A stretch of 54,181 nucleotides of DNA from a virus (Duplodnaviria > Caudoviricetes), in the IMG/VR virus record IMGVR_UViG_3300036852_000023, positions 1 to 54,181 of that record. The stretch is one strand, 5' to 3'. Shown piece after piece: positions 11,540 to 51,633 of this stretch. How positions within the stretch are numbered: position 1 is the stretch's first letter; the number at the start of each line of letters is the position of its first letter. The notes beneath the pieces were generated by a model. That model ran no database searches. It was not told where the DNA came from and saw only the letters and a program-made list of their open reading frames with translations. Made by a program: the position numbers and the translations under genes.

Positions 11540-11643
11540 TGTAAAATCAACGCGTAGTTTGATATACTTGATTAGAAATGCGAAACCGCAAAGTGCTGTC
11601 AACACAATGCGGCTTCTACCAGACAACTAGAGGAGTTAGTCGA

Positions 11644-12144
11644 ATGGCTAAGACGGATAATATCACGGCTGAACAAGTACGGGAATTGCTTGATTACGAT
11701 CCTGAGACTGGAATTTTTACATGGAAAGTCAAGTTAACTCGGTGGCATAAGATAGGCAGCATTGCTGCACATTTAAGTGGGGAATATCTACGAGTTAAGA
11801 TATTTGATAACTATATTAGGGCTCACCGGCTTGCTTGGTTATATGTATATGGTGAATTTCCAAAGCATGATATTGACCATCGAAACGGGAATCCACGAGA
11901 TAACAGTATCGCCAATCTGCGTGACGTGCCAACTTTTATTAATTTAGAAAACCAACGAAAACCAAGATCTAACAATAAAAGTGGCAGTGGATATCTAGGG
12001 GTCGGGTTTGAAAAAGGCAAGTGGCGCGCTCGAATTCGTGTTCACGGCAAGGAAATAAATCTAGGAAGGTTTAATACTCCACAAGAAGCGCATGAAGCTT
12101 ACATAGCTGCAAAAAGAATACTTCACGAAGGAAATACGCTTTAG
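11644..12144 (+). CDS. HNH homing endonuclease with AP2-like C-terminal domain
   Basis: LDYDPETGIFTW, AHRLAWLY, IDHRNGNPRDNSIANLR, KWRARI...LGRF; AT-rich; AGGAG RBS. Confidence 0.9.
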   Translation: MAKTDNITAEQVRELLDYDPETGIFTWKVKLTRWHKIGSIAAHLSGEYLRVKIFDNYIRAHRLAWLYVYGEFPKHDIDHRNGNPRDNSIANLRDVPTFINLENQRKPRSNNKSGSGYLGVGFEKGKWRARIRVHGKEINLGRFNTPQEAHEAYIAAKRILHEGNTL

Positions 12145-19000: not shown

Positions 19001-19398
19001 CGACTAGACAAGACGTTGTAGATGCGGCCCGAAAATATAATGGCGTACGCTGGCACCATCAAGGCCGGTCTATGGCAGGTATTGATTGCGTTGGGCTTGT
19101 GATTAAGGTCGCTCATGATTTGGGATTGAGCGACTTTGATGAAACAGGCTATGGTCGTCTGCCTGAAGGTAAGCGGCTTTTATCCGGTCTTAATGCCCAT
19201 ATGGATCGCGTGAAAGATTATCAAATGGGGGATGTGCTGCTAATGCGGTTCCAGACTGATCCCCAGCATCTGGCAATCGTGACTGATGTCGGGATTATTC
19301 ATGCTCTCACCCAAGGCCGTAAGGTGTTGGAGCACAGCCTTGATGATATTTGGCGCGCGCGCATCATAGCTGCCTATTCTTTCAGAGGGCTTGAATAA
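18997..19398 (+). CDS. NlpC/P60 tail-associated peptidase
   Basis: HQGR..G.DCVGL catalytic Cys; HLAI..IIHA. Confidence 0.9.
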   Translation: MTTRQDVVDAARKYNGVRWHHQGRSMAGIDCVGLVIKVAHDLGLSDFDETGYGRLPEGKRLLSGLNAHMDRVKDYQMGDVLLMRFQTDPQHLAIVTDVGIIHALTQGRKVLEHSLDDIWRARIIAAYSFRGLE

Positions 19399-22300
19399 TG
19401 TCAGGTCGTCTTATTGGTGGTGTAATTGGTGCTGTAATTGGATTCTATTTTGGCGGACCAGCGGGAGCGGCCCAAGGCTTTGCCATTGGATCAACCCTTG
19501 GCGGCCTGTTATTCCCCGGCAAACTGCCTGATGTCTATGGCCCACGCCTTACTGACTTAAAATTACAAGTCTCAACCTATGGGACTATGATCCCAATCTA
19601 TTTCGGTACCAATCGCGGTGCAGGTAACGTGATTTGGAAAACCGATATGGTTGAAACGGAACATACCGAAGAACAAGGCGGCAAGGGTGGCCCGACGCAG
19701 GATTTTCACACATACACCTATTCAGCTAGCTGGGCTATTAGCCTATGTGAAGGGCCAATAGTTGGCGTGCGTAAGATTTGGGCTGATAGTTTTCTAATTT
19801 ATGACGCATCAACGACAAATACGGGCATTTCGTATGCGCCGAGTATTATTAATGGCACGCAAGTAGTATCGACAGGCACACAGTCAATACCTGGCATGAC
19901 CGTCTATCTGGGCACAGAAACACAATTGCCTGACCCGACCATGGAGGCTCATTTCGGCGTCGGCAACGTGACGGCTTATCGTGGGCAGGCCTATATTGTG
20001 ATGACTGACTTTCAATTGGAAAAGTTCGGCAATCGCATGCCAGGCTTCAGTTTTGAAGTGGTTACAGAAGGTTCATTTGGCGATGTAATTTCTTACTACA
20101 CATCAAATAATGAGCTTGATTCAATAGTATATAACCCGCTTCTGAATGAGGTTTGGGTTTCCACGTCTCAAGATGCAGACGTAACTGAGCCAGCATTGAC
20201 TCGCATCAATGCTAATACCGGAGCTGTCGTAGGTTCAACAAGTGTCGGTGAATTTGTATCGTTCTACACTCCGATGATATACGACGAATTTGATCGTGCA
20301 GTGTGGGCATATGCTGCTGGTGGTATCAATAAGATTTATAAGTTTGATGCTGGAACTGGCGCATTCTTATTCAGTGCATCTCAAACAGATAATCAAGGCA
20401 TATATCTAAACCCATTTGATGGGTCTTTGTGGATCAAAAACACAAACAAGGTTACGCAAGTCAATAAAGACACTGGCGCAGCTATTTCTGTATCGGCTGC
20501 ACTAGGCTTCAATATTTACGATCTAACCTTTGCGACTGAAAACCAAGGGCGTAGATTTACGCCTGGCGGCGATACATTCATTGGGAACATTTATCTAACA
20601 TCTAACACTGTTGCGACTAATAAAAATCTGTATCGATACGACAGAACCAGTGCTGGTGTTGAATTGGTTTATACCGATGGGTCTACGCTCACAAACATGG
20701 CGTATGACACGACTAGAAACACGATATGGATTTTGCGTAATAGTGCCACGGCCATGGAATTTGACCCTGAATTTAGGGTAGCAACTGGCGATACGATAAC
20801 TATGGCTGTTGTTCCAACCGGAGGTGTTGGGTCATTTGTCTACGATGCCAATAGAGATATGCTTTGGGCTAGCCGTAGTTCGACCAATACGATTACTGGT
20901 AGCGCAGTATCAACGGGTACTGTTTATAAAACAGTATCTGGCTTAACTTTCAGCCCAACGATATTGCAACCGACATCATTTGCTATGTTTGCAAATGGTA
21001 CGAATATCGATGGTGAAGTCATCAAGATTATTTTTGATCGGCTGACGCCTGGTACGGTTCCATTAAGCGATGTATTAACCTCTATTTCTGAGAGAACCAC
21101 GCAACTTACGGCTTCTGACATTGATGTTACAGGGCAGACTTCTGTCATCGTTGATGGGTATACGATCACGCGTCAATCGCCTGCCCGTGCATGTATTGAG
21201 CAGCTTCAATCAGCATACTTTTTCGATGGTGTGGAATCTGATGGCAAGGCGAAATTCGTCAATCGTGGCGGCACATCTGCGGTAACTATCCCTACCGAAG
21301 ACATTGCAGCCTATCAGGCATACGGAGAAATTCCAGACGATATTGTTATTACCCGTGCGCAGGAAGTTGAACTCCCGAAAGAGGTCAATGTAACTTACAT
21401 TGCAAAAAGTGCTGATTATCAAACCGGAGCACAGCAGAGCCGCCGCTTAGTTGGTGCCGCCGGTCAGGTAACGACTGTTGAATTGCCTATCGTTCTGACT
21501 GACGATAAAGCGCGGCAAATATCTGAAATATCCATGTACAACGCGTGGACGTCGCGCACTGCCTACGAGTTCAGCACGAACCTAAAATACATCAAATACG
21601 AGCCGACCGATATTGTCACTATCGGGAATAAGACCATTCGATTGCTCGAAAAAGAAGAACAACAGGGAATTATCAAATGGAAAGGCCAGGCCGAAGAAAT
21701 TGAAGTCTATTCTCAAGCTGTAACAGGCGTGACGACTAGTTACATACCGCAAACTATTACTGAAACTGTAGCGACAGATTTGATGCTGCTGGATATCCCG
21801 ATGCTGCGTGATTCTGATGATGACGCAGGGTTTTACGCTACGGCAACAGGCTATCGTAGTGGGTGGAATGGTGCGGTATTGTTCAAATCAAATGATGATG
21901 GTGCCAGCTATACCGAAGTGCTCTCACTGACGAACGGTGCTGGAATTGGCTCGGCAACAACGGTGCTTGGCGATTTCTTCGGCGGGAATACATTTGATGA
22001 GGCAAACACTGTAACCGTATCATTGTTGGCTGGGGCGACGTTATCTAGTGCTACCGAATTGGCCGTGTTGAATGGCGGCAATGCTGCGTTGATTGGTGAT
22101 GAAATCATTCAATACAAAACCGCAACGCTAAACGGCGATGGCAGTTACACGATTAGCGGCCTGCTACGTGGCCGCCGTGGCACTGAATGGGCCATGAGCA
22201 CGCATATTGCTGGTGATCGATTCGTGGCGCTATCTAGCAGTACGCTGCGGCGTGTGCCGGCAACTACAGCGGAAATAGGCCTACAGCGTGTTTATAAGGG

Positions 22301-22700
22301 CGTGTCCATTGGTTCATCGCTATCAGATACAACAGCGCAGACATTCACCAATGCAGCCGAAGGGCTTGAATGCTATTCGCCTGTACAATTGGGCGGTGGC
22401 CGCGATGCTTCTGGAAACATAACCATCAATTGGGTGCGCCGTACTCGCATTGGCGGCGAATGGCGTGATTTGGTAGATGTGCCGTTGGGCGAATCGACTG
22501 AATCATACGAAGTAGAGATTTGGAACAGCACATTTACTACTTTGAAACGAACCATAACTGGCATAACCAGCGCGACTACATCTTATAGCTCCGCTAATCA
22601 GGTTACGGATTTTGGAAGTAATCAAGCAACAATTTATGTTCGAGTTTACCAATTGTCGGCCAATGTCGGCAGAGGTGTTAAGCTTCAGGGGACGGTTTAA
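19398..22700 (+). CDS. Tail tip / host-specificity protein (GTA megatron-like) with a beta-propeller-like insert
   Basis: GPRL.DL..Q.STYG..IP, AYRG.AY, FGNR.P.F.FEV, LLRGRRGTE, W.RRTR.GG.W.D..DVPLGE..E.YEVEI. Confidence 0.9.
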   Translation: MSGRLIGGVIGAVIGFYFGGPAGAAQGFAIGSTLGGLLFPGKLPDVYGPRLTDLKLQVSTYGTMIPIYFGTNRGAGNVIWKTDMVETEHTEEQGGKGGPTQDFHTYTYSASWAISLCEGPIVGVRKIWADSFLIYDASTTNTGISYAPSIINGTQVVSTGTQSIPGMTVYLGTETQLPDPTMEAHFGVGNVTAYRGQAYIVMTDFQLEKFGNRMPGFSFEVVTEGSFGDVISYYTSNNELDSIVYNPLLNEVWVSTSQDADVTEPALTRINANTGAVVGSTSVGEFVSFYTPMIYDEFDRAVWAYAAGGINKIYKFDAGTGAFLFSASQTDNQGIYLNPFDGSLWIKNTNKVTQVNKDTGAAISVSAALGFNIYDLTFATENQGRRFTPGGDTFIGNIYLTSNTVATNKNLYRYDRTSAGVELVYTDGSTLTNMAYDTTRNTIWILRNSATAMEFDPEFRVATGDTITMAVVPTGGVGSFVYDANRDMLWASRSSTNTITGSAVSTGTVYKTVSGLTFSPTILQPTSFAMFANGTNIDGEVIKIIFDRLTPGTVPLSDVLTSISERTTQLTASDIDVTGQTSVIVDGYTITRQSPARACIEQLQSAYFFDGVESDGKAKFVNRGGTSAVTIPTEDIAAYQAYGEIPDDIVITRAQEVELPKEVNVTYIAKSADYQTGAQQSRRLVGAAGQVTTVELPIVLTDDKARQISEISMYNAWTSRTAYEFSTNLKYIKYEPTDIVTIGNKTIRLLEKEEQQGIIKWKGQAEEIEVYSQAVTGVTTSYIPQTITETVATDLMLLDIPMLRDSDDDAGFYATATGYRSGWNGAVLFKSNDDGASYTEVLSLTNGAGIGSATTVLGDFFGGNTFDEANTVTVSLLAGATLSSATELAVLNGGNAALIGDEIIQYKTATLNGDGSYTISGLLRGRRGTEWAMSTHIAGDRFVALSSSTLRRVPATTAEIGLQRVYKGVSIGSSLSDTTAQTFTNAAEGLECYSPVQLGGGRDASGNITINWVRRTRIGGEWRDLVDVPLGESTESYEVEIWNSTFTTLKRTITGITSATTSYSSANQVTDFGSNQATIYVRVYQLSANVGRGVKLQGTV

Positions 22701-25009: not shown

Positions 25010-25157
25010 TGCCTCGCTGGCCGCGCCGTGCCCAGCAATCCCAGCGCCTGACGCAGCCTCATACGACGCATGGCAAGACGCCTATATGGCGCTGATGGGC
25101 CAGTACGTTATTTGCGCAAGGCAGAAAGCAGCGATTGTGAAGGTTTGGCCGAAATAG
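24903..25157 (+). CDS. Rz1-like o-spanin lipoprotein
   Basis: Lipobox LFAC, Pro-rich, starts inside Rz in another frame. Confidence 0.8.
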   Translation: MSHRILCLLIAIPTLFACSSLKPSERLVIAPYPPLDASLAAPCPAIPAPDAASYDAWQDAYMALMGQYVICARQKAAIVKVWPK

Positions 25158-25708: not shown

Positions 25709-25975
25709 TTAATCGACATAATCAGGTCCGCCAATCCCGCCTTGTAGCTTCGCGGATTTGATCTGAGCAATTGATTCCATTAAGCGATCAGCATTCTTTG
25801 GGTTGCCCAATAAATACAACGTTTCCTGTGCAGACTGAACCACCGCGCGCAAACGCTCAATCTCGTCGCAAATATTGACCATATCCGCAACATCAATCTC
25901 CGCCACAGAATAGCCAAACGATACGAACTGCACGATCTGTTCACGTATTTTGCCAATATCAACACTTTTGTTCAT
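25709..25975 (-). CDS. 88-aa protein with a YefM antitoxin-like C-terminal segment
   Basis: QETLYLLGNPKNADRLMESIAQIKS; ATGA coupling to the upstream gene and GGAGG RBS support start 25975. Confidence 0.7.
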   Translation of the reverse strand: MNKSVDIGKIREQIVQFVSFGYSVAEIDVADMVNICDEIERLRAVVQSAQETLYLLGNPKNADRLMESIAQIKSAKLQGGIGGPDYVD

Positions 25976-26229
25976 GCGTTTGCCTCCAGCATTTCCACCA
26001 CTTTCATAACTGCCCATTCCAATGCAGCTTCCGCCCCGCCATGGTCTGCATAGCGCGTAGTAACGCGGTCTAGGATGGTCGGATGCCATACGCTGACCTT
26101 TCCTTGGCTGATGTGATGATGAACATCCAACTGATGCTTGCAGATGAGCCGTGAGGGCGTGTCATGGCCATCGGTTGAGATGTTCAGGTCTGCTATATCG
26201 TCCTGTTTAATTGCTTCCCAATAGCTCAT
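25972..26229 (-). CDS. Hypothetical protein
   Basis: ATGA-coupled ORF. Confidence 0.65.
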   Translation of the reverse strand: MSYWEAIKQDDIADLNISTDGHDTPSRLICKHQLDVHHHISQGKVSVWHPTILDRVTTRYADHGGAEAALEWAVMKVVEMLEANA

Positions 26230-26576
26230 GGCGTGGCCTCATGAATGGCAAAATCAACAGCATCATTTACAGACCTTGCTAGGGATTCGCAATCATCCGG
26301 GAAATCAACGCTATTCCCTTCTGGCTCACAAAGCATTACATATCCAAAGCCGTTCACAATAAGGATGTTGATTTCCCATTCTTCTGGCAGTTCATCGCCA
26401 GCACGCTGAGTAGCAATATGTAGTTCAGCATCCGCCTTCAGCGCCGCATTCTCAGCCATCAGCTCGCGGATATGCTTGCATAGATCAAGAGACGTAAGTG
26501 CACCAACGACACCATTCACATTATGGATGTCATCCAGTGATAAGTTGCCTGTTCCATATTTTCTGTCCTCTCGCAT
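26226..26576 (-). CDS. Hypothetical protein (Ea22-like coiled coil)
   Basis: AAGGAGG RBS; LMAENAALKADAE. Confidence 0.65.
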   Translation of the reverse strand: MREDRKYGTGNLSLDDIHNVNGVVGALTSLDLCKHIRELMAENAALKADAELHIATQRAGDELPEEWEINILIVNGFGYVMLCEPEGNSVDFPDDCESLARSVNDAVDFAIHEATP

Positions 26577-26584
26577 CTCAATCC

Positions 26585-26655
26585 TCCTTATGCCAACAAA
26601 AATTGCAATCTGTCCTTATGCTATGCTAGTCTTTGACTGTTGGCAAGCATAAGGA
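26585..26655. promoter_or_regulatory. Divergent promoter region bounded by an imperfect inverted repeat
   Basis: tccttatgccaaca ... tgttggca(agca)taagga; ttgcaa and tagtct boxes in between. Confidence 0.55.
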
Positions 26656-28598: not shown

Positions 28599-28982
28599 TT
28601 AATTAGAAACGCCAGTGATATTCGGCAGCAATGCTGACGGGTTGAATGTGACTCGATAATGGAAAGGCGTTGTCGTTGCGCTTTCTATTTGCTCAGCGAT
28701 GTAGGTTACATTATCGCTCAAGCCAAGAAAATTCTTCTTGTATTTGTTTGCGCCAGTCTTACAAGTGACAGTTAGTTCTCTCGATTTATCGTAGTTACCT
28801 AGGCTGCAATATCCTTCGATAACCAGCAAAGAAGTACCGGTAATGCCATTGTAAAAAGTAATCTTTCTTTCGACTTCAAAGTTGTCGGCAGCTTCACTCA
28901 GATTTTGTGACGCAACATCGGCAGGTTTGGCGCAAGCAGTCAGCAAACCGCCAAAGCATAAAGCAATCAAAAGTGTTTTCAT
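28599..28982 (-). CDS. Conserved phage lipoprotein
   Basis: Lipobox LTAC; ADVAS.NLS.AADNFE..R.I.FYNGIT, K.FLGLSDNVTY. Confidence 0.8.
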   Translation of the reverse strand: MKTLLIALCFGGLLTACAKPADVASQNLSEAADNFEVERKITFYNGITGTSLLVIEGYCSLGNYDKSRELTVTCKTGANKYKKNFLGLSDNVTYIAEQIESATTTPFHYRVTFNPSALLPNITGVSN

Positions 28983-29398: not shown

Positions 29399-29853
29399 TC
29401 TGTAATCCTCCTGAATAGGTGCATTTTAACTGAACGATTGCCACTCTTAACGATGGCTGTTTTCTTTTCGGCCTCGCGCCGATTCCAACGATCAATCAGG
29501 AATTGTCGTGCAACTTCGCGGTGAGTCAGTGCATCAATCGCAAAGTCTGGTGCAGAAATCCATTGAGGCGGCAGCATCCAGATGAAATCCATTCTTTTAG
29601 ATGTTGCGCCAGATGCGCCGATAGTATGGTCATTCATGCCAATCCGCTGCCATATATTGCCCGCATGGACGATTAAATTTTCCAATTGCATCTCGTCCAG
29701 CGCATATTCAGCATCAAGTCTGCACATCCTGGCGAATCTGGAAAAATCGCCAGTGGTGAAAATCATGGGCATCCACGAGAGCGCTGTTGTGCCACGCAAT
29801 CGGCTCTCATTGTGAAAAGTGACAATGCGGCGAGGCATCTCAGCGGTCATCAT
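29395..29853 (-). CDS. Hypothetical protein
   Basis: Coupled ORF. Confidence 0.65.
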   Translation of the reverse strand: MMTAEMPRRIVTFHNESRLRGTTALSWMPMIFTTGDFSRFARMCRLDAEYALDEMQLENLIVHAGNIWQRIGMNDHTIGASGATSKRMDFIWMLPPQWISAPDFAIDALTHREVARQFLIDRWNRREAEKKTAIVKSGNRSVKMHLFRRITE

Positions 29854-30410
29854 GCTGTAACTGCCTGCTGGTTCTTACTGTTGAATTTCCGCGCATTAGC
29901 AATCCTATCTTTGCTGGATTGCTTGCGTAGGCATCCGCATGATTTCGTTATGCCACGTGTCACATTGGATTTAATGATTTCCTTTGATAGCCCGCATTCA
30001 CAATCGAATAGCCAGATTTCAATGCGGCGTCGACGGCCTTCTTTATCAGCAACTGAGAATTTATCTTCAACCCGTTGCCTAGCCGTTAAGATCGTATCGG
30101 GTATTTTCTGGCCTGAAATATCAGATGATGGCCGCGTTATTTTACGCGGTTCATTGATTGTTACAGGATTAGGCTTCTTTTTCTTTGTATCCAATGTGGC
30201 TTGAAACTCAAGCCAATCAGTCTCCGTTGCTGGGATGAGATTATAATCATCCTTGCGGCGCAGATACATGGCGCGATAAAGCCGCTTAAGATTGTGAATC
30301 GCCATTTCTTGCGATTCATCATTGATTTTTACCACGACAGTACGGCGATAATTTTCACCGATCCCATATATCAAAAGATCAGCAAAGAAATAGAATGGTT
30401 CGAGTTTCAC
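29850..30410 (-). CDS. Protein with CxCG...SCGC zinc-binding domain (HNH/AP2-associated type)
   Basis: WLFDCECG...TKSCGC. Confidence 0.65.
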   Translation of the reverse strand: MKLEPFYFFADLLIYGIGENYRRTVVVKINDESQEMAIHNLKRLYRAMYLRRKDDYNLIPATETDWLEFQATLDTKKKKPNPVTINEPRKITRPSSDISGQKIPDTILTARQRVEDKFSVADKEGRRRRIEIWLFDCECGLSKEIIKSNVTRGITKSCGCLRKQSSKDRIANARKFNSKNQQAVTA

Positions 30411-32543: not shown

Positions 32544-32972
32544 CTATTTACCAGTTGAACCAAGACCATTTACGCCGCGACTGGTGTTAGATAAATCATG
32601 CTCTTCAATAATTGAAAATTTTGGGCATGGCAAAATCATGAATTGCGCAATACGATCGCCAGCATTGACGGTTAGCAACTCATGCCCATCATTGCGAAGC
32701 TTGATCATTAATTGGCCGCGATAATCACTATCTAATACTCCAACCGCATTCGACAGCCGCGTATCATGATTGAACCCCATCCCGCTACGACTATAGACAA
32801 GCATTACATGACCAGCAGGTACCTCAAATGCTAAACCAGTCTCAAATAAAAATGCCTCTCCCGGCTCAATCCAACCGCCATGCAATGCACTAACGTCCAT
32901 GCAGGCAGAACCATCGGTAGCATATGTTGGTGCTTTTGCGCTGCCATCCAATCGTTTGAATTTAATATTCAT
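32544..32972 (-). CDS. dut: dUTPase (trimeric)
   Basis: GSACMD, SRSG, GVLDSDYRG, GDRIAQ and RG..GLGSTG motifs. Confidence 0.95.
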   Translation of the reverse strand: MNIKFKRLDGSAKAPTYATDGSACMDVSALHGGWIEPGEAFLFETGLAFEVPAGHVMLVYSRSGMGFNHDTRLSNAVGVLDSDYRGQLMIKLRNDGHELLTVNAGDRIAQFMILPCPKFSIIEEHDLSNTSRGVNGLGSTGK

Positions 32973-33307
32973 ATTGAACCTCCATCAAATTTAATGATCC
33001 TTCGGCCTAGAATGCCCTTTATGGCGAATCTGCCATTAAGTCGGTACTGATGCTGCCAATTGTCTGTTATATGGCGTCTAGCGGCGTGCAAGGCGCGAAT
33101 ATTCTCAATTTTCTTGCATCCGCAAGATACAATCTTCTTATACTTGCCAAACACGCTTGGCGCATCTGCGATGTAATCCTTCCTGCCGCAAGTGCATTCA
33201 AACCGCCACATGGCCTTATTGTTTTTGTGATAACCAGCATACTCAACCGCCTTGAGCCTTCCGCTCTCGCTGGTCATGCCTGAGTAGTCTTTGAATGGGC
33301 GGCCCAT
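32969..33307 (-). CDS. Protein with CxCG...SCGC domain
   Basis: GRL.AV...W.FECTCG...SCGC. Confidence 0.65.
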   Translation of the reverse strand: MGRPFKDYSGMTSESGRLKAVEYAGYHKNNKAMWRFECTCGRKDYIADAPSVFGKYKKIVSCGCKKIENIRALHAARRHITDNWQHQYRLNGRFAIKGILGRRIIKFDGGSI

Positions 33308-36015: not shown

Positions 36016-36642
36016 TTAATCCTTTATAATTCTGGCTATTACAAATCTAGAAACATTAAATTGTTTTGCAAGACGTGTAATATCCCCACGTTTGCCAGTA
36101 AATGCATCTTTTATGGATTGCTCCATTGCATCTGTCGTTTTTCGTTTCGCTTTCCCAAGCAATGCACACCTATCTTTATGTTCTTTATTAATAATTCGTG
36201 CTCCAGATAAATAGGCATGCTTAACATTGTAGGATTGTGACACCCACTCCATGTTTTCAGCCCTATTATCATGTTTCACACCGTTCTTATGATTAACTAC
36301 TTCTCCAATCCTCGGCATCCCATGGAAAGCCTCGGCAATCAATCTGTGGACTGTCTTTCTATATTTAATACCTTTTTCAACAAGACAAACATGCGTATAT
36401 CCATTGGATACCATTAATGGCTTTAAAAACCTTTTTGATCTAATGGAATATATATTCCCACACTCACTAAATAGATAACTTGGGAACCTATCAATTTTCC
36501 TAAAATTGTTCTCGTCTGCACTTGATTGATTGCCTGGTAGACTTGCATGATTTTGTCCCGTGAATAATGTTTGATCGTGGCCCGAGTATTCTTGTTCTTC
36601 AGCCTCAAGCTTGTCCCATATAACTGACTTTGTGCGGCTCAT
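36016..36642 (-). CDS. HNH homing endonuclease (NUMOD4-HNH type) fused to an upstream small ORF
   Basis: Y..S..G.IYS, VHRLIAEAF, VNHKNG.K.DNR.EN.EW; AT-rich. Confidence 0.88.
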   Translation of the reverse strand: MSRTKSVIWDKLEAEEQEYSGHDQTLFTGQNHASLPGNQSSADENNFRKIDRFPSYLFSECGNIYSIRSKRFLKPLMVSNGYTHVCLVEKGIKYRKTVHRLIAEAFHGMPRIGEVVNHKNGVKHDNRAENMEWVSQSYNVKHAYLSGARIINKEHKDRCALLGKAKRKTTDAMEQSIKDAFTGKRGDITRLAKQFNVSRFVIARIIKD

Positions 36643-37100: not shown

Positions 37101-37290
37101 GACATTTCAGCCTAATAATTACTTCGTAAGTTTTAGCGCAGGCATCACACAAAACGGCCATATCACCAACTCGGTCAAGCTTTGGCTCTCCTGTTACTGG
37201 ATCGCAATTATCAAAGTCATAGTTCAAGTTGGAGTCATAGAACGCCTTATTGCCACATCTGTCGCACAAACGGTAATCAGCCATTGCCAT
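37093..37290 (-). CDS. Small CxxC...CxxC protein
   Basis: MAMADY.LCD.CG.KAFYD.NL...GD....C..C. Confidence 0.65.
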   Translation of the reverse strand: MAMADYRLCDRCGNKAFYDSNLNYDFDNCDPVTGEPKLDRVGDMAVLCDACAKTYEVIIRLKCHD

Positions 37291-37789
37291 TTTCAGTATC
37301 CTTAAAGTTAACCGCGCCAATCTCCTGATACAGCTTGCCAAGCCGCTTGCTAATGCCTTTGATTCGCCTGCGGAACTGCTCAGCGGCTGGATGCTCAGCG
37401 ATATGCCGCTCGAACTGGTCTTGCAGCACGCTCACGCGGTCTAGTAGTTCGTGCATGTGCAATTCATCCAATGGGTAGCGGTTATGCGTAACCCTGTAAT
37501 TTGTATTGCCGCCATTAATGCCAGCGATTGTGATTTTATCGCCTGGCTTAAATGAAAGAGATTCTGAAACTGACTTGCATGGCTTTTGATGGATGATCCG
37601 ATAGGCAACAATATCATTGCTGTAGCCATCATTCCGCCAAAATGCATATCCAGCGTCACGCTCATTCTCATCGTCGTGTATATTCGCTCGCAATATCACT
37701 GATTCTTCGCCATCTCTGTAACGAACATGTACCAGCGTACCATCTGGCACAGGACATTCCCCGCCATGCCATTCAATCCATTCGCTCAT
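37277..37789 (-). CDS. Hypothetical protein (WIEW.GGECPV family)
   Basis: WIEWHGGECPV...DIVAYR; paralog at 51247. Confidence 0.7.
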   Translation of the reverse strand: MSEWIEWHGGECPVPDGTLVHVRYRDGEESVILRANIHDDENERDAGYAFWRNDGYSNDIVAYRIIHQKPCKSVSESLSFKPGDKITIAGINGGNTNYRVTHNRYPLDELHMHELLDRVSVLQDQFERHIAEHPAAEQFRRRIKGISKRLGKLYQEIGAVNFKDTENGNG

Positions 37790-38768
37790 GGGTAGCTCCT
37801 TCGTCAAAGTCAAAAGAATGGTTTTCTTCAATGTCTTTCTGCCCTGCCGCTGCCATTTTTACGTTCTTCACAGCCTGGCGGTAATAGCTTGGTTTCAGTT
37901 CCGCACCTATGCCACGGCGACCAAGCATTACTGGCGAATAGACTTCGCTGCCAACACCCATAAAAGGAGTAAAGACAGTTTCGCCAGGATTGGTGCGAAG
38001 AACAACGCAACGGTCAATGACATCTAGCTGCAATGGGTGGACATGCTTCTCGTCCTCGCTATCGCGTGCTTCACGATATGGGAGAACACGCCCCATCCGA
38101 ATATCATCCCACATGCAGTCAGCGTATTGTCGCCAAATCCAATGAGAAAAACGGTTCTCGGTTTGCTTACCTTTCCATCCACGATAAGAAAGAATGTCCG
38201 ATGGCATTAACCGTTCGCCTGCATAATCAAGCAGCCCGACTGGATGTTGCACCGGTACCTGATTTTTACCGTCACGCCGAAACAGTAGGAGATAATCAGC
38301 GGAAGCAATCCCGCAATCAATCGAATCGGCCACTAATGAGGCATGCGCTAGATTCTTCTGCATGGTGCGCAAACGCACCTCCAAAGGTTCCTTCCAGATT
38401 GCGTGCCGCCCGGCATACTTCCAACCTTCGCGCTCGTGCAGTCGAATGATGTCGCCCGGGAAGTCGCGGTAGGAATCGGTGCCACTGTTGGATCGCGGCA
38501 CGTCCATACAATGAACACAACTCATCCGGCCAGGCATAGTAATTCTGGCCAACTCTCGAACTACGAAAGTGTAATGGTCAAAAAATCCATCGTAATCGTC
38601 GCAGTTGGATAGATCGCGCTCATTGCTGCTGTAATGATACAATCCCCCAAATGGCGGGCTATAAACTGAGAGATGTATTGAAGCTTCCGGCATTGACTGC
38701 ATAATTTCTACGCAATCAGAATTGTATACAGCAAACTTGTCGGTCACGCACTGATCAATTACAGCCAT
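37773..38768 (-). CDS. DNA methyltransferase (N4-C/N6-A, beta-class motif order)
   Basis: SPPF catalytic motif before the PFMGVGSE SAM-binding motif; H..PLQLDVI. Confidence 0.9.
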   Translation of the reverse strand: MAVIDQCVTDKFAVYNSDCVEIMQSMPEASIHLSVYSPPFGGLYHYSSNERDLSNCDDYDGFFDHYTFVVRELARITMPGRMSCVHCMDVPRSNSGTDSYRDFPGDIIRLHEREGWKYAGRHAIWKEPLEVRLRTMQKNLAHASLVADSIDCGIASADYLLLFRRDGKNQVPVQHPVGLLDYAGERLMPSDILSYRGWKGKQTENRFSHWIWRQYADCMWDDIRMGRVLPYREARDSEDEKHVHPLQLDVIDRCVVLRTNPGETVFTPFMGVGSEVYSPVMLGRRGIGAELKPSYYRQAVKNVKMAAAGQKDIEENHSFDFDEGATHERMD

Positions 38769-47341: not shown

Positions 47342-47806
47342 GTGGTGGATTTAGATAAATTCATTGAGCCGAAAATTACGCGCATCCCTGAATCTGGATG
47401 TTGGATTTGGCTAAGTTCACTATCTAAAACCGGTTACGCCATTGGTAGGCCAGAAGAAAAGCATGTACGTATCCATCGCTGGCTTTATCAGAAATTACAT
47501 GGAAGTGTTGGCGACCTTACTCTGGATCACTTATGCAAGAATAGATGTTGTATAAATCCAAATCATCTTGAGCCTGTTACGGCTGGCGAAAATTCACTTA
47601 GAGGAAATGGGCCGACTGCGATCAATGCAAGAATGAAAGCATGTAAAAATGGTCACCCATTTGATCGATTGGTTTATTACAGCAATGGGAAGACTAAACG
47701 GATTTGCTCTATTTGTAGAAATGAAAGAGATAAGCGGGGCAAACGCAAACGGCGTGCGAAAGCGCACTATGTCGCCGGCGCCCCTCGGCAGGAGGATCAG
47801 CCATGA
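47342..47806 (+). CDS. HNH homing endonuclease
   Basis: SGCWIW, HRW.Y, LDHLC.NR.C.NP.HLEPVT..EN, C.NGH, C.IC. Confidence 0.9.
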   Translation: MVDLDKFIEPKITRIPESGCWIWLSSLSKTGYAIGRPEEKHVRIHRWLYQKLHGSVGDLTLDHLCKNRCCINPNHLEPVTAGENSLRGNGPTAINARMKACKNGHPFDRLVYYSNGKTKRICSICRNERDKRGKRKRRAKAHYVAGAPRQEDQP

Positions 47807-48678: not shown

Positions 48679-48945
48679 ATGGCCAGTGGAAATGTACCAG
48701 CATTCCCTATTGCTTGTGAAATAGGTGAGGGGGATATTGATTTTTGGGGCGAAGTGCAGAAAGAAAATATTACCGTAACCTACGGTGGGTTATCAGTACG
48801 TCAATTCACCGCCATCAAAATGATGCAATCCCTCATCCCCGTAGCCTATGCCGAGACAGACAAGCCATGTCCTATCTCAATGGCCGATAAGGCGGTTGAG
48901 CTGGCAGATGCGATCATCGCACGACTGGAAAGGGATGCGGAATGA
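48679..48945 (+). CDS. Hypothetical protein (PAFP...G(L/M)(S/T).R family)
   Basis: PAFP, GLSVRQF.A..MMQ, AV.LADA. Confidence 0.7.
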   Translation: MASGNVPAFPIACEIGEGDIDFWGEVQKENITVTYGGLSVRQFTAIKMMQSLIPVAYAETDKPCPISMADKAVELADAIIARLERDAE

Positions 48946-50363: not shown

Positions 50364-50671
50364 CGCCGCCTAAATTCAGCCTACATGCCATAGAGCGCTT
50401 TGCCGAGCGCTTCCCGGCCAAGGCAAGCCGCATGTACGCGATTTTCGAGGCATCCACGCTGTATAAGGGCTGGATAAACAACACGCGGCTCATGGCAACC
50501 TTGGTGCGCAAATACGGCGATGTGGTCGGGCAGCAGCAAGTGCGCATCGCTGAGGGCGTGGCATTTATCATCGGGCCGCGCCGAGATGGTGAGATGTATG
50601 TGATTACCTGTGTACCCGCGACGCAGTACATCGACTCGCGGTTGCCGTGGCTTAAGGAGAGGGTGAGATAA
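50360..50671 (+). CDS. Putative BECR-fold RNase-like protein
   Basis: FS.HAIERF.ERF N-terminus and YVIT C-terminal strand. Confidence 0.5.
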   Translation: MTPPKFSLHAIERFAERFPAKASRMYAIFEASTLYKGWINNTRLMATLVRKYGDVVGQQQVRIAEGVAFIIGPRRDGEMYVITCVPATQYIDSRLPWLKERVR

Positions 50672-50928
50672 TGTCAATGATAGAAGATGCATACTTTGCT
50701 TTCCCATCTCATGAAGCATCCAGCAGTGACCCACGCAATCAGATAAGTGGTGGGGGCATGACCCTCCGCGATTACTTCGCAGCTAAGGCCTTGGGGGCAC
50801 TTATCAATACCCCGCATTCTTGGTTTGATCTGAATCTAAGACCGAAAGACGGGCTTTCTGATACGGAACAAATCTGTAGATTTGCATATCAGTATGCTGA
50901 TGCAATGCTCAAGGAGCGCTCGCGATGA
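50671..50928 (+). CDS. Hypothetical protein (GMTLRDYFAAKA family)
   Basis: AFP, GMTLRDYFAAKAL, AY.YADAML.ER. Confidence 0.8.
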   Translation: MSMIEDAYFAFPSHEASSSDPRNQISGGGMTLRDYFAAKALGALINTPHSWFDLNLRPKDGLSDTEQICRFAYQYADAMLKERSR

Positions 50929-51246: not shown

Positions 51247-51633
51247 ATGATCTGTACTGAATGGATAAAATGGGAAGGCGGCGATATGCCTGTACCTGAA
51301 GGTGCGCTCGTGGATGTGCATTACCGCTTTGGCACAACTCGCATTGCAGTGAGAGCCGGTCAATACGCTGACCAAGATGGAACGTATCCAGCGCAAGTAT
51401 GGGCTCATTGCAATAACGCATATGACATTGTTGGCTACCGTGCCTATTACGCAGATAAGGCTGAGCCGAAACAAAAGAACGTAGGCCTTGCAATTGCAGA
51501 AAACCGCGTGCAGCTTACCATTGATCTGATTGAATCATTGGCAGGCTATAAAATTTACTATGGAGAACGAATGGCAAAGGTAATTCGCCAACTCAAGAAG
51601 CTCCAGAAGGAAATAGAGGAGGATTTGGGATGA
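51247..51633 (+). CDS. Hypothetical protein (WIKW.GG..PV family)
   Basis: Paralogous N-domain to 37277-37789; AAGGA RBS. Confidence 0.7.
   Translation: MICTEWIKWEGGDMPVPEGALVDVHYRFGTTRIAVRAGQYADQDGTYPAQVWAHCNNAYDIVGYRAYYADKAEPKQKNVGLAIAENRVQLTIDLIESLAGYKIYYGERMAKVIRQLKKLQKEIEEDLG

Follow-up and report, generated by a model that had tools for sequence, protein, structure and literature searches.

A chimeric phage protein with a putative YefM-type toxin-binding segment: a candidate antitoxin decoy without its DNA-binding domain

For type III and type IV toxin-antitoxin systems, phage proteins that take the place of an antitoxin have been described, and T4 Dmd and the pseudo-ToxI of PhiTE are phage antitoxin mimics that are used as counter-defence. 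AdfN of T4, directed against DarTG1, is a type IV enzyme that reverses the product of the toxin, and it is, to the knowledge of its authors, the first antitoxin homologue of a lytic phage with a role in counter-defence (PMC11825919). The same paper, from 2025, notes that orphan antitoxins of type II are hard to recognise, their neutralising part being short and disordered, and that an antitoxin of this type is as a rule specific to the toxin with which it is paired. In the lytic cyanophage S-CREM1, orphan yefM, mazE and tacA genes have been annotated and have been proposed, without a test, to counter host toxins (PMC9964418). Furthermore, it has been argued that toxins of the RelE/ParE superfamily serve in defence, and a YoeB-related domain is described in a putative defence operon (PMC11980606). 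In the open-access literature that was searched, no paper was found in which a YefM-YoeB pair restricts a phage, nor a functional study of Pakpunavirus antitoxin-like proteins or of anti-defence proteins of the YefM type.

The protein described here, P0001, shares with AdfN that a phage without the toxin encodes the job of the antitoxin. Unlike AdfN, it would be of type II and would make use of the binding segment alone, grafted onto another protein. The S-CREM1 locus is comparable in that a lytic phage carries a YefM-annotated gene without a toxin; the genes of that phage carry annotations as whole antitoxins, whereas P0001 has no N-domain and is a fusion. When set beside the structurally characterized YefM proteins (E. 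coli 2A6Q; S. aureus 6L8E/6L8F; M. tuberculosis RelJ 3CTO/3OEI), P0001 is devoid of the beta-alpha N-domain and of an adjacent toxin gene.

The stretch of DNA that was analysed, referred to as the window, corresponds to a complete virus record, 54,181 bp in length, which has direct terminal repeats and a siphovirus-like look. The head, tail and lysis genes are located on the plus strand, up to about position 25,157, and are followed by replication and recombination genes on both strands. Comparison of the window DNA with a phage collection (near and distant matches) and with E. coli genomes gave no match, no tRNA genes were found in the phage, and a genome scan with its DnaB-like helicase found nothing. 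The best matches of the portal protein are in Pseudomonas phages, and the portal and tail proteins have at most about 43% identity to phages of varied Proteobacteria.

P0001 is encoded in a leftward cluster that comprises five or six small orphan ORFs, spans 26576 to about 25108 and runs towards the lysis genes in convergent orientation (Table 1). Its neighbours in the cluster have no family in Pfam, PHROGs (E <= 0.01, one weak match excepted), NCBIfam or PADLOC; the PADLOC search matched none of eight proteins. The gene looks expressed, judging from the GGAGG motif 7 nt ahead of the ATG and from the ATGA stop/start overlap, and since its start is thus overlapped by the stop of the upstream 85-aa ORF, the two are probably translationally coupled. 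Sigma-70-like promoter matches in this region are no more numerous than in shuffled sequences, and only the position of the one listed in Table 1 is suggestive. The ORF downstream of P0001 has a G+C content of 0.338 compared to 0.495 for the window. This is the lowest value among the six ORFs measured in the neighbourhood and suggests that the ORF was acquired separately and recently.

Table 1. Position and properties of the features discussed in the text
Feature	Position	Strand	Remark
ORFs matching HNH endonuclease PHROGs	11578-12144 (+), 29850-30410 (-), 32969-33307 (-), 36016-36642 (-), 47342-47806 (+)		
Sigma-70-like promoter match TTGCCA-17-TAGCAT	26618..26646	-	just upstream of the cluster
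First ORF of the leftward cluster, 116 aa, orphan	26226..26576	-	no family match
Upstream orphan ORF, 85 aa	25972..26229	-	TGA stop overlaps the ATG of P0001 (ATGA); no family match
GGAGG ribosome-binding site	25983..25987	-	7 nt upstream of the ATG; read from the sequence
Whole ORF of P0001, 88 aa and TAA stop, chimeric protein	25709..25975	-	same start used by the sole homologue, P0002
Residues 1-44 of P0001, orphan phage N-terminal segment	25844..25975	-	100% identical to residues 1-44 of P0002
Residues 47-76 of P0001, YefM-type toxin-binding segment	25748..25837	-	end of alpha3, G-N-P break, alpha4
Residues 77-88 of P0001, glycine-rich C-terminal end	25712..25747	-	predicted disordered
Downstream orphan ORF, 65 aa	25500..25697	-	occupies the slot where a toxin gene would be

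From their sequence, residues 47-76 of P0001 can be considered a genuine C-terminal segment of YefM, homologous to this antitoxin. The initial annotation had drawn attention to such a likeness on the basis of residues 50-76 (nt 25748-25828), which read exactly as it gave them, and the likeness has now been confirmed by a significant profile match. When a tail-only HMM was run on 2007 six-frame segments of the window, P0001 was found with E 2.5e-16 (56.2 bits), a value that is somewhat flattering as the rows of the HMM were chosen via their likeness to the query, and the runner-up had E 0.71. These rows (n=7, with the window's own row left out) represent four canonical YefMs with an adjacent YoeB, which are independently annotated as YefM or Phd/YefM-family antitoxins, one truncated bacterial ORF and two phage grafts. 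The Pfam profile PF02604 aligns with residues 47-73 on its positions 46-72 of 74 (E 0.0059; 16.8 bits, below the gathering cut-off of 29.8 bits), and the NCBIfam YefM equivalog NF008499 with residues 47-76 on positions 46-75 of 83 (E 6.6e-6; 26.2 bits, below the curated cut-off of 121). The match with phrog_10078 has E 7.9e-6.

In the PDB, all eight chains found at E <= 0.01 are YefM-family antitoxins, originating from three species and aligned over the same ungapped stretch (E. coli 2a6q; M. tuberculosis 3cto/3oei; S. aureus 6l8e/6l8f/6l8g/7bwf). P0001 retains each of the ten tail columns that are invariant across 10 distinct canonical YefMs, and two of six invariant columns when its N-terminal part is forced into alignment with 10 canonical YefMs. 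A tblastn search of plasmids gave 132 records; among the 40 matches listed, 37 lie under genes for Phd/YefM or prevent-host-death antitoxins, two under "hypothetical protein" and one under no feature, and the best identity among them is 69% over 29 residues, on betaproteobacterial plasmids. When whole databases are searched, the tail is too short for a significant score.

To judge from its only relative, P0001 is a chimera, since it matches that relative at every one of its first 44 residues and the tails that follow are unrelated. This relative, P0002, has 108 residues and is the only one in 5.8 billion clustered proteins and 1.84 billion representatives: a word-index search with P0001 returned two proteins, HMMER over the 1.84 billion representatives also returned two, and the same two were obtained with P0002 as the query. 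A search with residues 45-88 of P0001 alone returned the query only. Pattern scans for P0001 in viral, metagenome and genome contigs matched 3, 173 and 140 stretches, respectively, of which none were confirmed. The break lies at residue 44/45, three residues ahead of the YefM likeness.

In single-sequence models, with a mean pLDDT of 72.7 for P0001 and 77.0 for P0002, the two proteins share a layout consisting of a helix at residues 7-19, a long helix that starts at residue 29 and runs across the junction, and another helix; the shared 44 residues of P0001 thus contain the predicted helix 7-19 and the first half of a long helix 29-55. The tail of P0002 has no match of note in the PDB, Pfam or NCBIfam. 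A fold search with the monomer model of P0001 gave no match at E <= 0.001 (best 1.6), and in a protein atlas only scores below 0.8 were obtained. Since both halves of P0001 are alike in G+C content (0.447 and 0.462), composition cannot date the graft. The YefM tail is absent from P0002, and its conservation is seen only in the analogous grafts of other phages described below. The fusion occurs in a single sequence cluster and, because the sole homologue has a different tail, nothing shows selection on P0001 itself.

The initial annotation had also held that the Phd/YefM N-domain is lacking and replaced by a phage-type segment, and that no YoeB or RelE gene is adjacent. All of this is borne out. 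An HMM built from the N-domains of four canonical YefMs found nothing in the window (best E 1.7), the Pfam and NCBIfam profiles align to P0001 only from profile position 46 onward, and residues 1-44 are phage-specific. Six-frame scans of the complete 54,181-bp phage with PF06769 (YoeB) and PF05016 (ParE/RelE) gave no candidates for either, and the best hit of our own YoeB HMM in the window has E 0.89. P0001 is therefore encoded without a cognate toxin not only in its immediate surroundings but in the complete genome. The 65-aa ORF that follows it has no YoeB or RelE likeness in Pfam, PHROGs, NCBIfam or PADLOC or with the YoeB HMM, and its look-alikes in the protein atlas all score below 0.8 and have no RelE-like fold.

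This is in contrast with the loci from which such tails are otherwise known. In all four canonical YefM pairs that were fetched, an N-domain and an adjacent YoeB are present. A scan of IMG/VR with tail patterns, derived from a five-row tail alignment as the eight-row one was too diverse, picked up 97 stretches; the 13 confirmed among them are without exception canonical, each having an N-domain (E <= 1.2e-25) and a YoeB next to it (E <= 2.6e-38), among tails close enough to fit these patterns, which are strict and would miss diverged tails. In each of the 17 canonical loci, this type of tail is accompanied by YoeB, and P0001 has neither the N-domain nor YoeB.

The plasmid sequence closest to the tail of P0001 is found on a megaplasmid of Mycetohabitans endofungorum, where a 60-aa ORF that consists of the tail only is annotated as a Phd/YefM antitoxin. 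Downstream of it lies a broken remnant of YoeB (E 1.9e-7). In this fungal endosymbiont, then, a toxin-antitoxin pair is decaying, which shows that YefM ORFs with only a tail can arise by decay. P0001 differs from it by the lack of a toxin remnant and by being an in-frame fusion.

With respect to toxin binding, residues 47-76 align without gaps to the end of alpha3 and to alpha4 of E. coli YefM, the part that wraps YoeB, with 17 of 30 residues identical. In S. aureus YefM, the hydrophobic residues of alpha3 and alpha4 that contact YoeB are T51, Y53, L54, L64, I68 and L71, and the terminal beta4 strand, which pairs with beta1 of YoeB, contributes three further contact residues to the interface (PMC7544224). 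In the ungapped alignment the six helical contacts correspond to T52, Y54, L55, L65, I69 and I72 of P0001, five being identical and one conservative. The beta4 strand has no clear counterpart: the last 12 residues of P0001 (77-88) are glycine-rich and predicted to be disordered, align poorly to this strand and are not placed with confidence in the co-fold.

A predicted binding to YoeB-family toxins, which the initial annotation had named as a check, is indeed obtained. Co-folding of P0001 with the E. coli toxin (Swiss-Prot YOEB_ECOLI) gave a score of 0.88 in each of three runs compared to 0.02 for the best of three controls, a result that does not say which YoeB, if any, is bound. The mark used is attained in 51 of 78 solved complexes, as opposed to 2 of 108 mismatched pairs. 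Contact agreement between the runs is at least 75%, and the pLDDT of the partner is at least 78. The confident interface is restricted on P0001 to residues 47-76, which are predicted on the same face of YoeB as YefM, and on YoeB it takes in residues 46, 65, 83 and 84, which we take to be the catalytic residues. The outcome may reflect a memory of the solved complex 2A6Q and hence likeness rather than binding.

P0001 does not seem to stand alone. A tblastn search with P0001 against 50,697 phage records gave five matches, all of them via the tail: one canonical YefM-YoeB pair, in Pseudomonas phage vB_PaeS-D14H, two records of phage EM and two Voja-6-like jumbo phages. In phage EM, the motif occupies a central position in EM_124, a protein of 197 aa that is annotated as "YoeB-like TA antitoxin" and has no toxin beside it. 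This protein matches phrog_7101 with E 3.4e-33 over positions 5-206, whereas the canonical YefM of D14H matches the same family via its tail (2.1e-13). P0001 itself was considered as a member of phrog_7101, and this was rejected: its match (E 0.0092) covers only positions 90-141 of about 220, that is, the motif, which makes it an analogue. Dap2 of phage PaoP5 was likewise considered as a phrog_7101 protein and rejected, as it is Orf004, a different gene.

The Pseudomonas phage records with a relative of the EM protein number 124, and in 99 of them the coverage is at least 80%. When three phrog_7101 proteins were aligned (those of EM, JG004 PJG4_104 and PAK_P1 PAK_P100045), the identity to the EM protein was about 40% and the tail motif was invariant; the tails of JG004 and PAK_P1 extend into the beta4 region (NF008499 positions 51-81 of 83). 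The Pakpunavirus tails are 59-68% identical to the canonical YefM tail of the P. aeruginosa phage D14H. A search with this D14H tail found 105 phage records; 57 of the 60 matches listed come from Pseudomonas phages with records of some 78-95 kb, have 59-74% identity and are located in genes annotated as hypothetical or "YoeB-like", under no feature or in an unannotated record. In view of these matches, the putative graft in P. aeruginosa phages resembles YefM of the P. aeruginosa type.

A second scaffold is found in the Voja-6-like phages. Voja6_00070, a hypothetical protein of 255 residues from a Pseudomonas putida jumbo phage, has a YefM tail near its end (PF02604, E 5.4e-4). Among 10 records of such phages, six cover the whole protein and three stop at residue 202; in Lauda, one of these three, the protein is 95% identical to that of Voja-6 except that exactly the 50 tail-bearing residues are missing. 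YoeB (PF06769) was found in none of the four genomes of EM, Voja-6, JG004 and PAK_P1, while the D14H control was positive (9e-38). A YefM-type tail, to all appearance grafted, is therefore recurrent on unrelated scaffolds in Pseudomonas phages that lack the toxin.

These parallels have their own resemblances and differences. The Pakpunavirus phrog_7101 proteins have in common with P0001 a phage of lytic type, an embedded YefM tail, and the absence of a YefM N-domain and of YoeB from the genome; unlike P0001, they have an unrelated scaffold of about 200-220 residues with the tail in the middle. They likely work in the same way as P0001. In the main texts of the open-access literature searched, only annotation labels were found for them; a single paper uses the label "YoeB-like TA antitoxin", where it is no more than an entry in a list of genes. 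In the Voja-6-like phages the tail is near the end of an unrelated protein, and its presence or absence between close relatives mirrors the pair P0001 and P0002. However, scaffold and host are different, and the form without the tail is a plain deletion there, whereas P0002 has a different tail.

On the basis of this information, we lean towards P0001 being a stripped antitoxin decoy against a host toxin of the YoeB family. This reading rests on homology, on the contact residues that are kept, on the in-silico interface and on the independent parallels. Counting against it are the restriction of the fusion to one sequence cluster, the Pfam score below the cut-off, the lack of significance of the tail in whole-database searches, the possible memory of 2A6Q in the co-fold, the unclear beta4 strand, the usual specificity of type II antitoxins, the decay route seen in Mycetohabitans and the absence, from the literature searched, of a paper in which a YefM-YoeB pair restricts a phage. 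The initial annotation had already proposed an antitoxin that neutralises a host YoeB-family toxin without repressing its promoter, as counter-defence against abortive infection. The structural half of this proposal, a YefM segment without its N-domain behind a phage N-terminus and with no linked toxin, stands; the functional half is retained here in the conditional form just given.

The decoy would have originated by a recombination event that placed the first 44 codons of an orphan phage gene in frame ahead of the 3' portion of a yefM-type gene, from which the end of helix alpha3, helix alpha4 and the C-terminus are translated. As the gene sits in the leftward cluster of small non-structural genes, P0001 is probably made during infection. 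Residues 47-76 would then wrap the concave face of a ribosome-dependent mRNase of the YoeB/Txe family, encoded by the host, a resident prophage or a plasmid. When host gene expression is shut off, the labile YefM would decay, and P0001 would take over from it in holding the toxin inactive. In the absence of the beta-alpha N-domain, P0001 is expected neither to form a dimer of the YefM type nor to bind the operator and, for lack of this DNA-binding domain, it would neutralise the toxin without joining in the repression of the operator. In this scheme we infer expression and its timing, real binding, the target toxin, the identity of the host and the benefit to the phage.

The main rival to the decoy reading is a neutral recombination scar, in which a piece of yefM, or what remains of a phage-borne yefM-yoeB cassette, was fused in frame and now persists as a tail that has no role and has not yet decayed. 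The fusion is confined to one sequence cluster, and a very recent event is indicated by the 44 identical N-terminal residues shared with the only relative. The PHROG scan of 75 ORFs of the phage revealed five HNH endonuclease-like ORFs (Table 1), and five such homing-type nucleases fit a highly mosaic genome. Mycetohabitans provides an instance of a tail-only YefM ORF derived by decay, yet there the toxin is still recognisable as a remnant (E 1.9e-7), whereas the window contains no remnant of YoeB or of the YefM N-domain. A scar also does not readily account for a junction that is in frame, for a captured piece that starts at the toxin-binding region and continues to the stop codon, or for ten intact invariant tail positions out of ten. 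Moreover, the same outcome has been reached independently in two other phage lineages and has been conserved across the diverged Pakpunavirus proteins. We regard a neutral scar as unlikely.

A different role for the tail would be that of a protease decoy or degron, timing the turnover of its carrier or competing with the host YefM for a protease. It is known that YefM is degraded by Lon under stress (PMC7544224) and that the Pakpunavirus PaoP5 invests in the anti-Lon proteins Dap1 and Dap2 (PMC13083879), and the end of P0001 is predicted to be disordered. Nevertheless, what is conserved is exactly the set of residues that contact YoeB, and not mere disorder, and Dap2 is not the phrog_7101 protein, so that this explanation seems highly improbable. 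Least probable of all is that P0001 is the antitoxin half of a novel phage-borne pair, directed against an unrecognised phage toxin such as the 65-aa ORF: a small ORF on the same strand, 12-21 nt downstream of an antitoxin-like one and deviant in G+C as acquired genes often are, has the appearance of a partner, but it matches no toxin family nor the YoeB HMM, its atlas look-alikes have no RelE-like fold, its 65 residues are fewer than those of the fetched YoeB toxins (84-102 aa), and the tail type goes with YoeB in all of the 17 canonical loci.

Under the decoy reading, P0001 would be a clean natural example of an antitoxin of which only the neutralising part has been kept and has been moved to another protein. 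Two further scaffolds bear similar grafts, and in the roughly one hundred sequenced phages of Pseudomonas aeruginosa that possess one of these, the annotation is hypothetical or limited to a label. If these proteins bind YoeB, they would constitute indirect evidence that YefM-YoeB pairs restrict phages. Binding would also provide a recipe for the detection of anti-toxin-antitoxin genes, namely tail-only profiles combined with the absence of the N-domain and the toxin, and it could help to explain differences in host range among therapeutic phages.

It is possible to speculate further, although we consider this extension doubtful. Disordered toxin-binding tails of type II antitoxins, grafted on unrelated phage proteins, might be a general, modular counter-defence of virulent phages. 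The N-terminus shared by P0001 and P0002 would then be a carrier with exchangeable tails, the tail of P0002 being perhaps a decoy for another toxin, and the phrog_7101 proteins (in more than 100 phages, from a group used in phage therapy) and the Voja-6-like proteins would be host-matched decoys against YoeB. Pairs of the YoeB type would in that case be a real barrier to phages under natural conditions.

Finally, some other characteristics of the phage can be mentioned. One of the five HNH ORFs separates the tail terminator gene from the major tail gene. The ORF at 28599-28982 (-) strongly matches a recombination directionality factor family (phrog_478, E 2.5e-45), and no integrase family was matched among the 75 ORFs scanned. 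The tail protein of 1100 residues encoded at 19398-22700 (+) is similar to host-specificity proteins of gene transfer agents, and its best matches, with 27-39% identity, are in phages of Alphaproteobacteria and Microcystis. Furthermore, the phage carries paralogous small genes in separate parts of its genome, as two PHROGs of unknown function are each matched by a pair of ORFs: phrog_9174 by 37277-37831 (-) and 51247-51633 (+), and phrog_2201 by 48679-48945 (+) and 50671-50928 (+).
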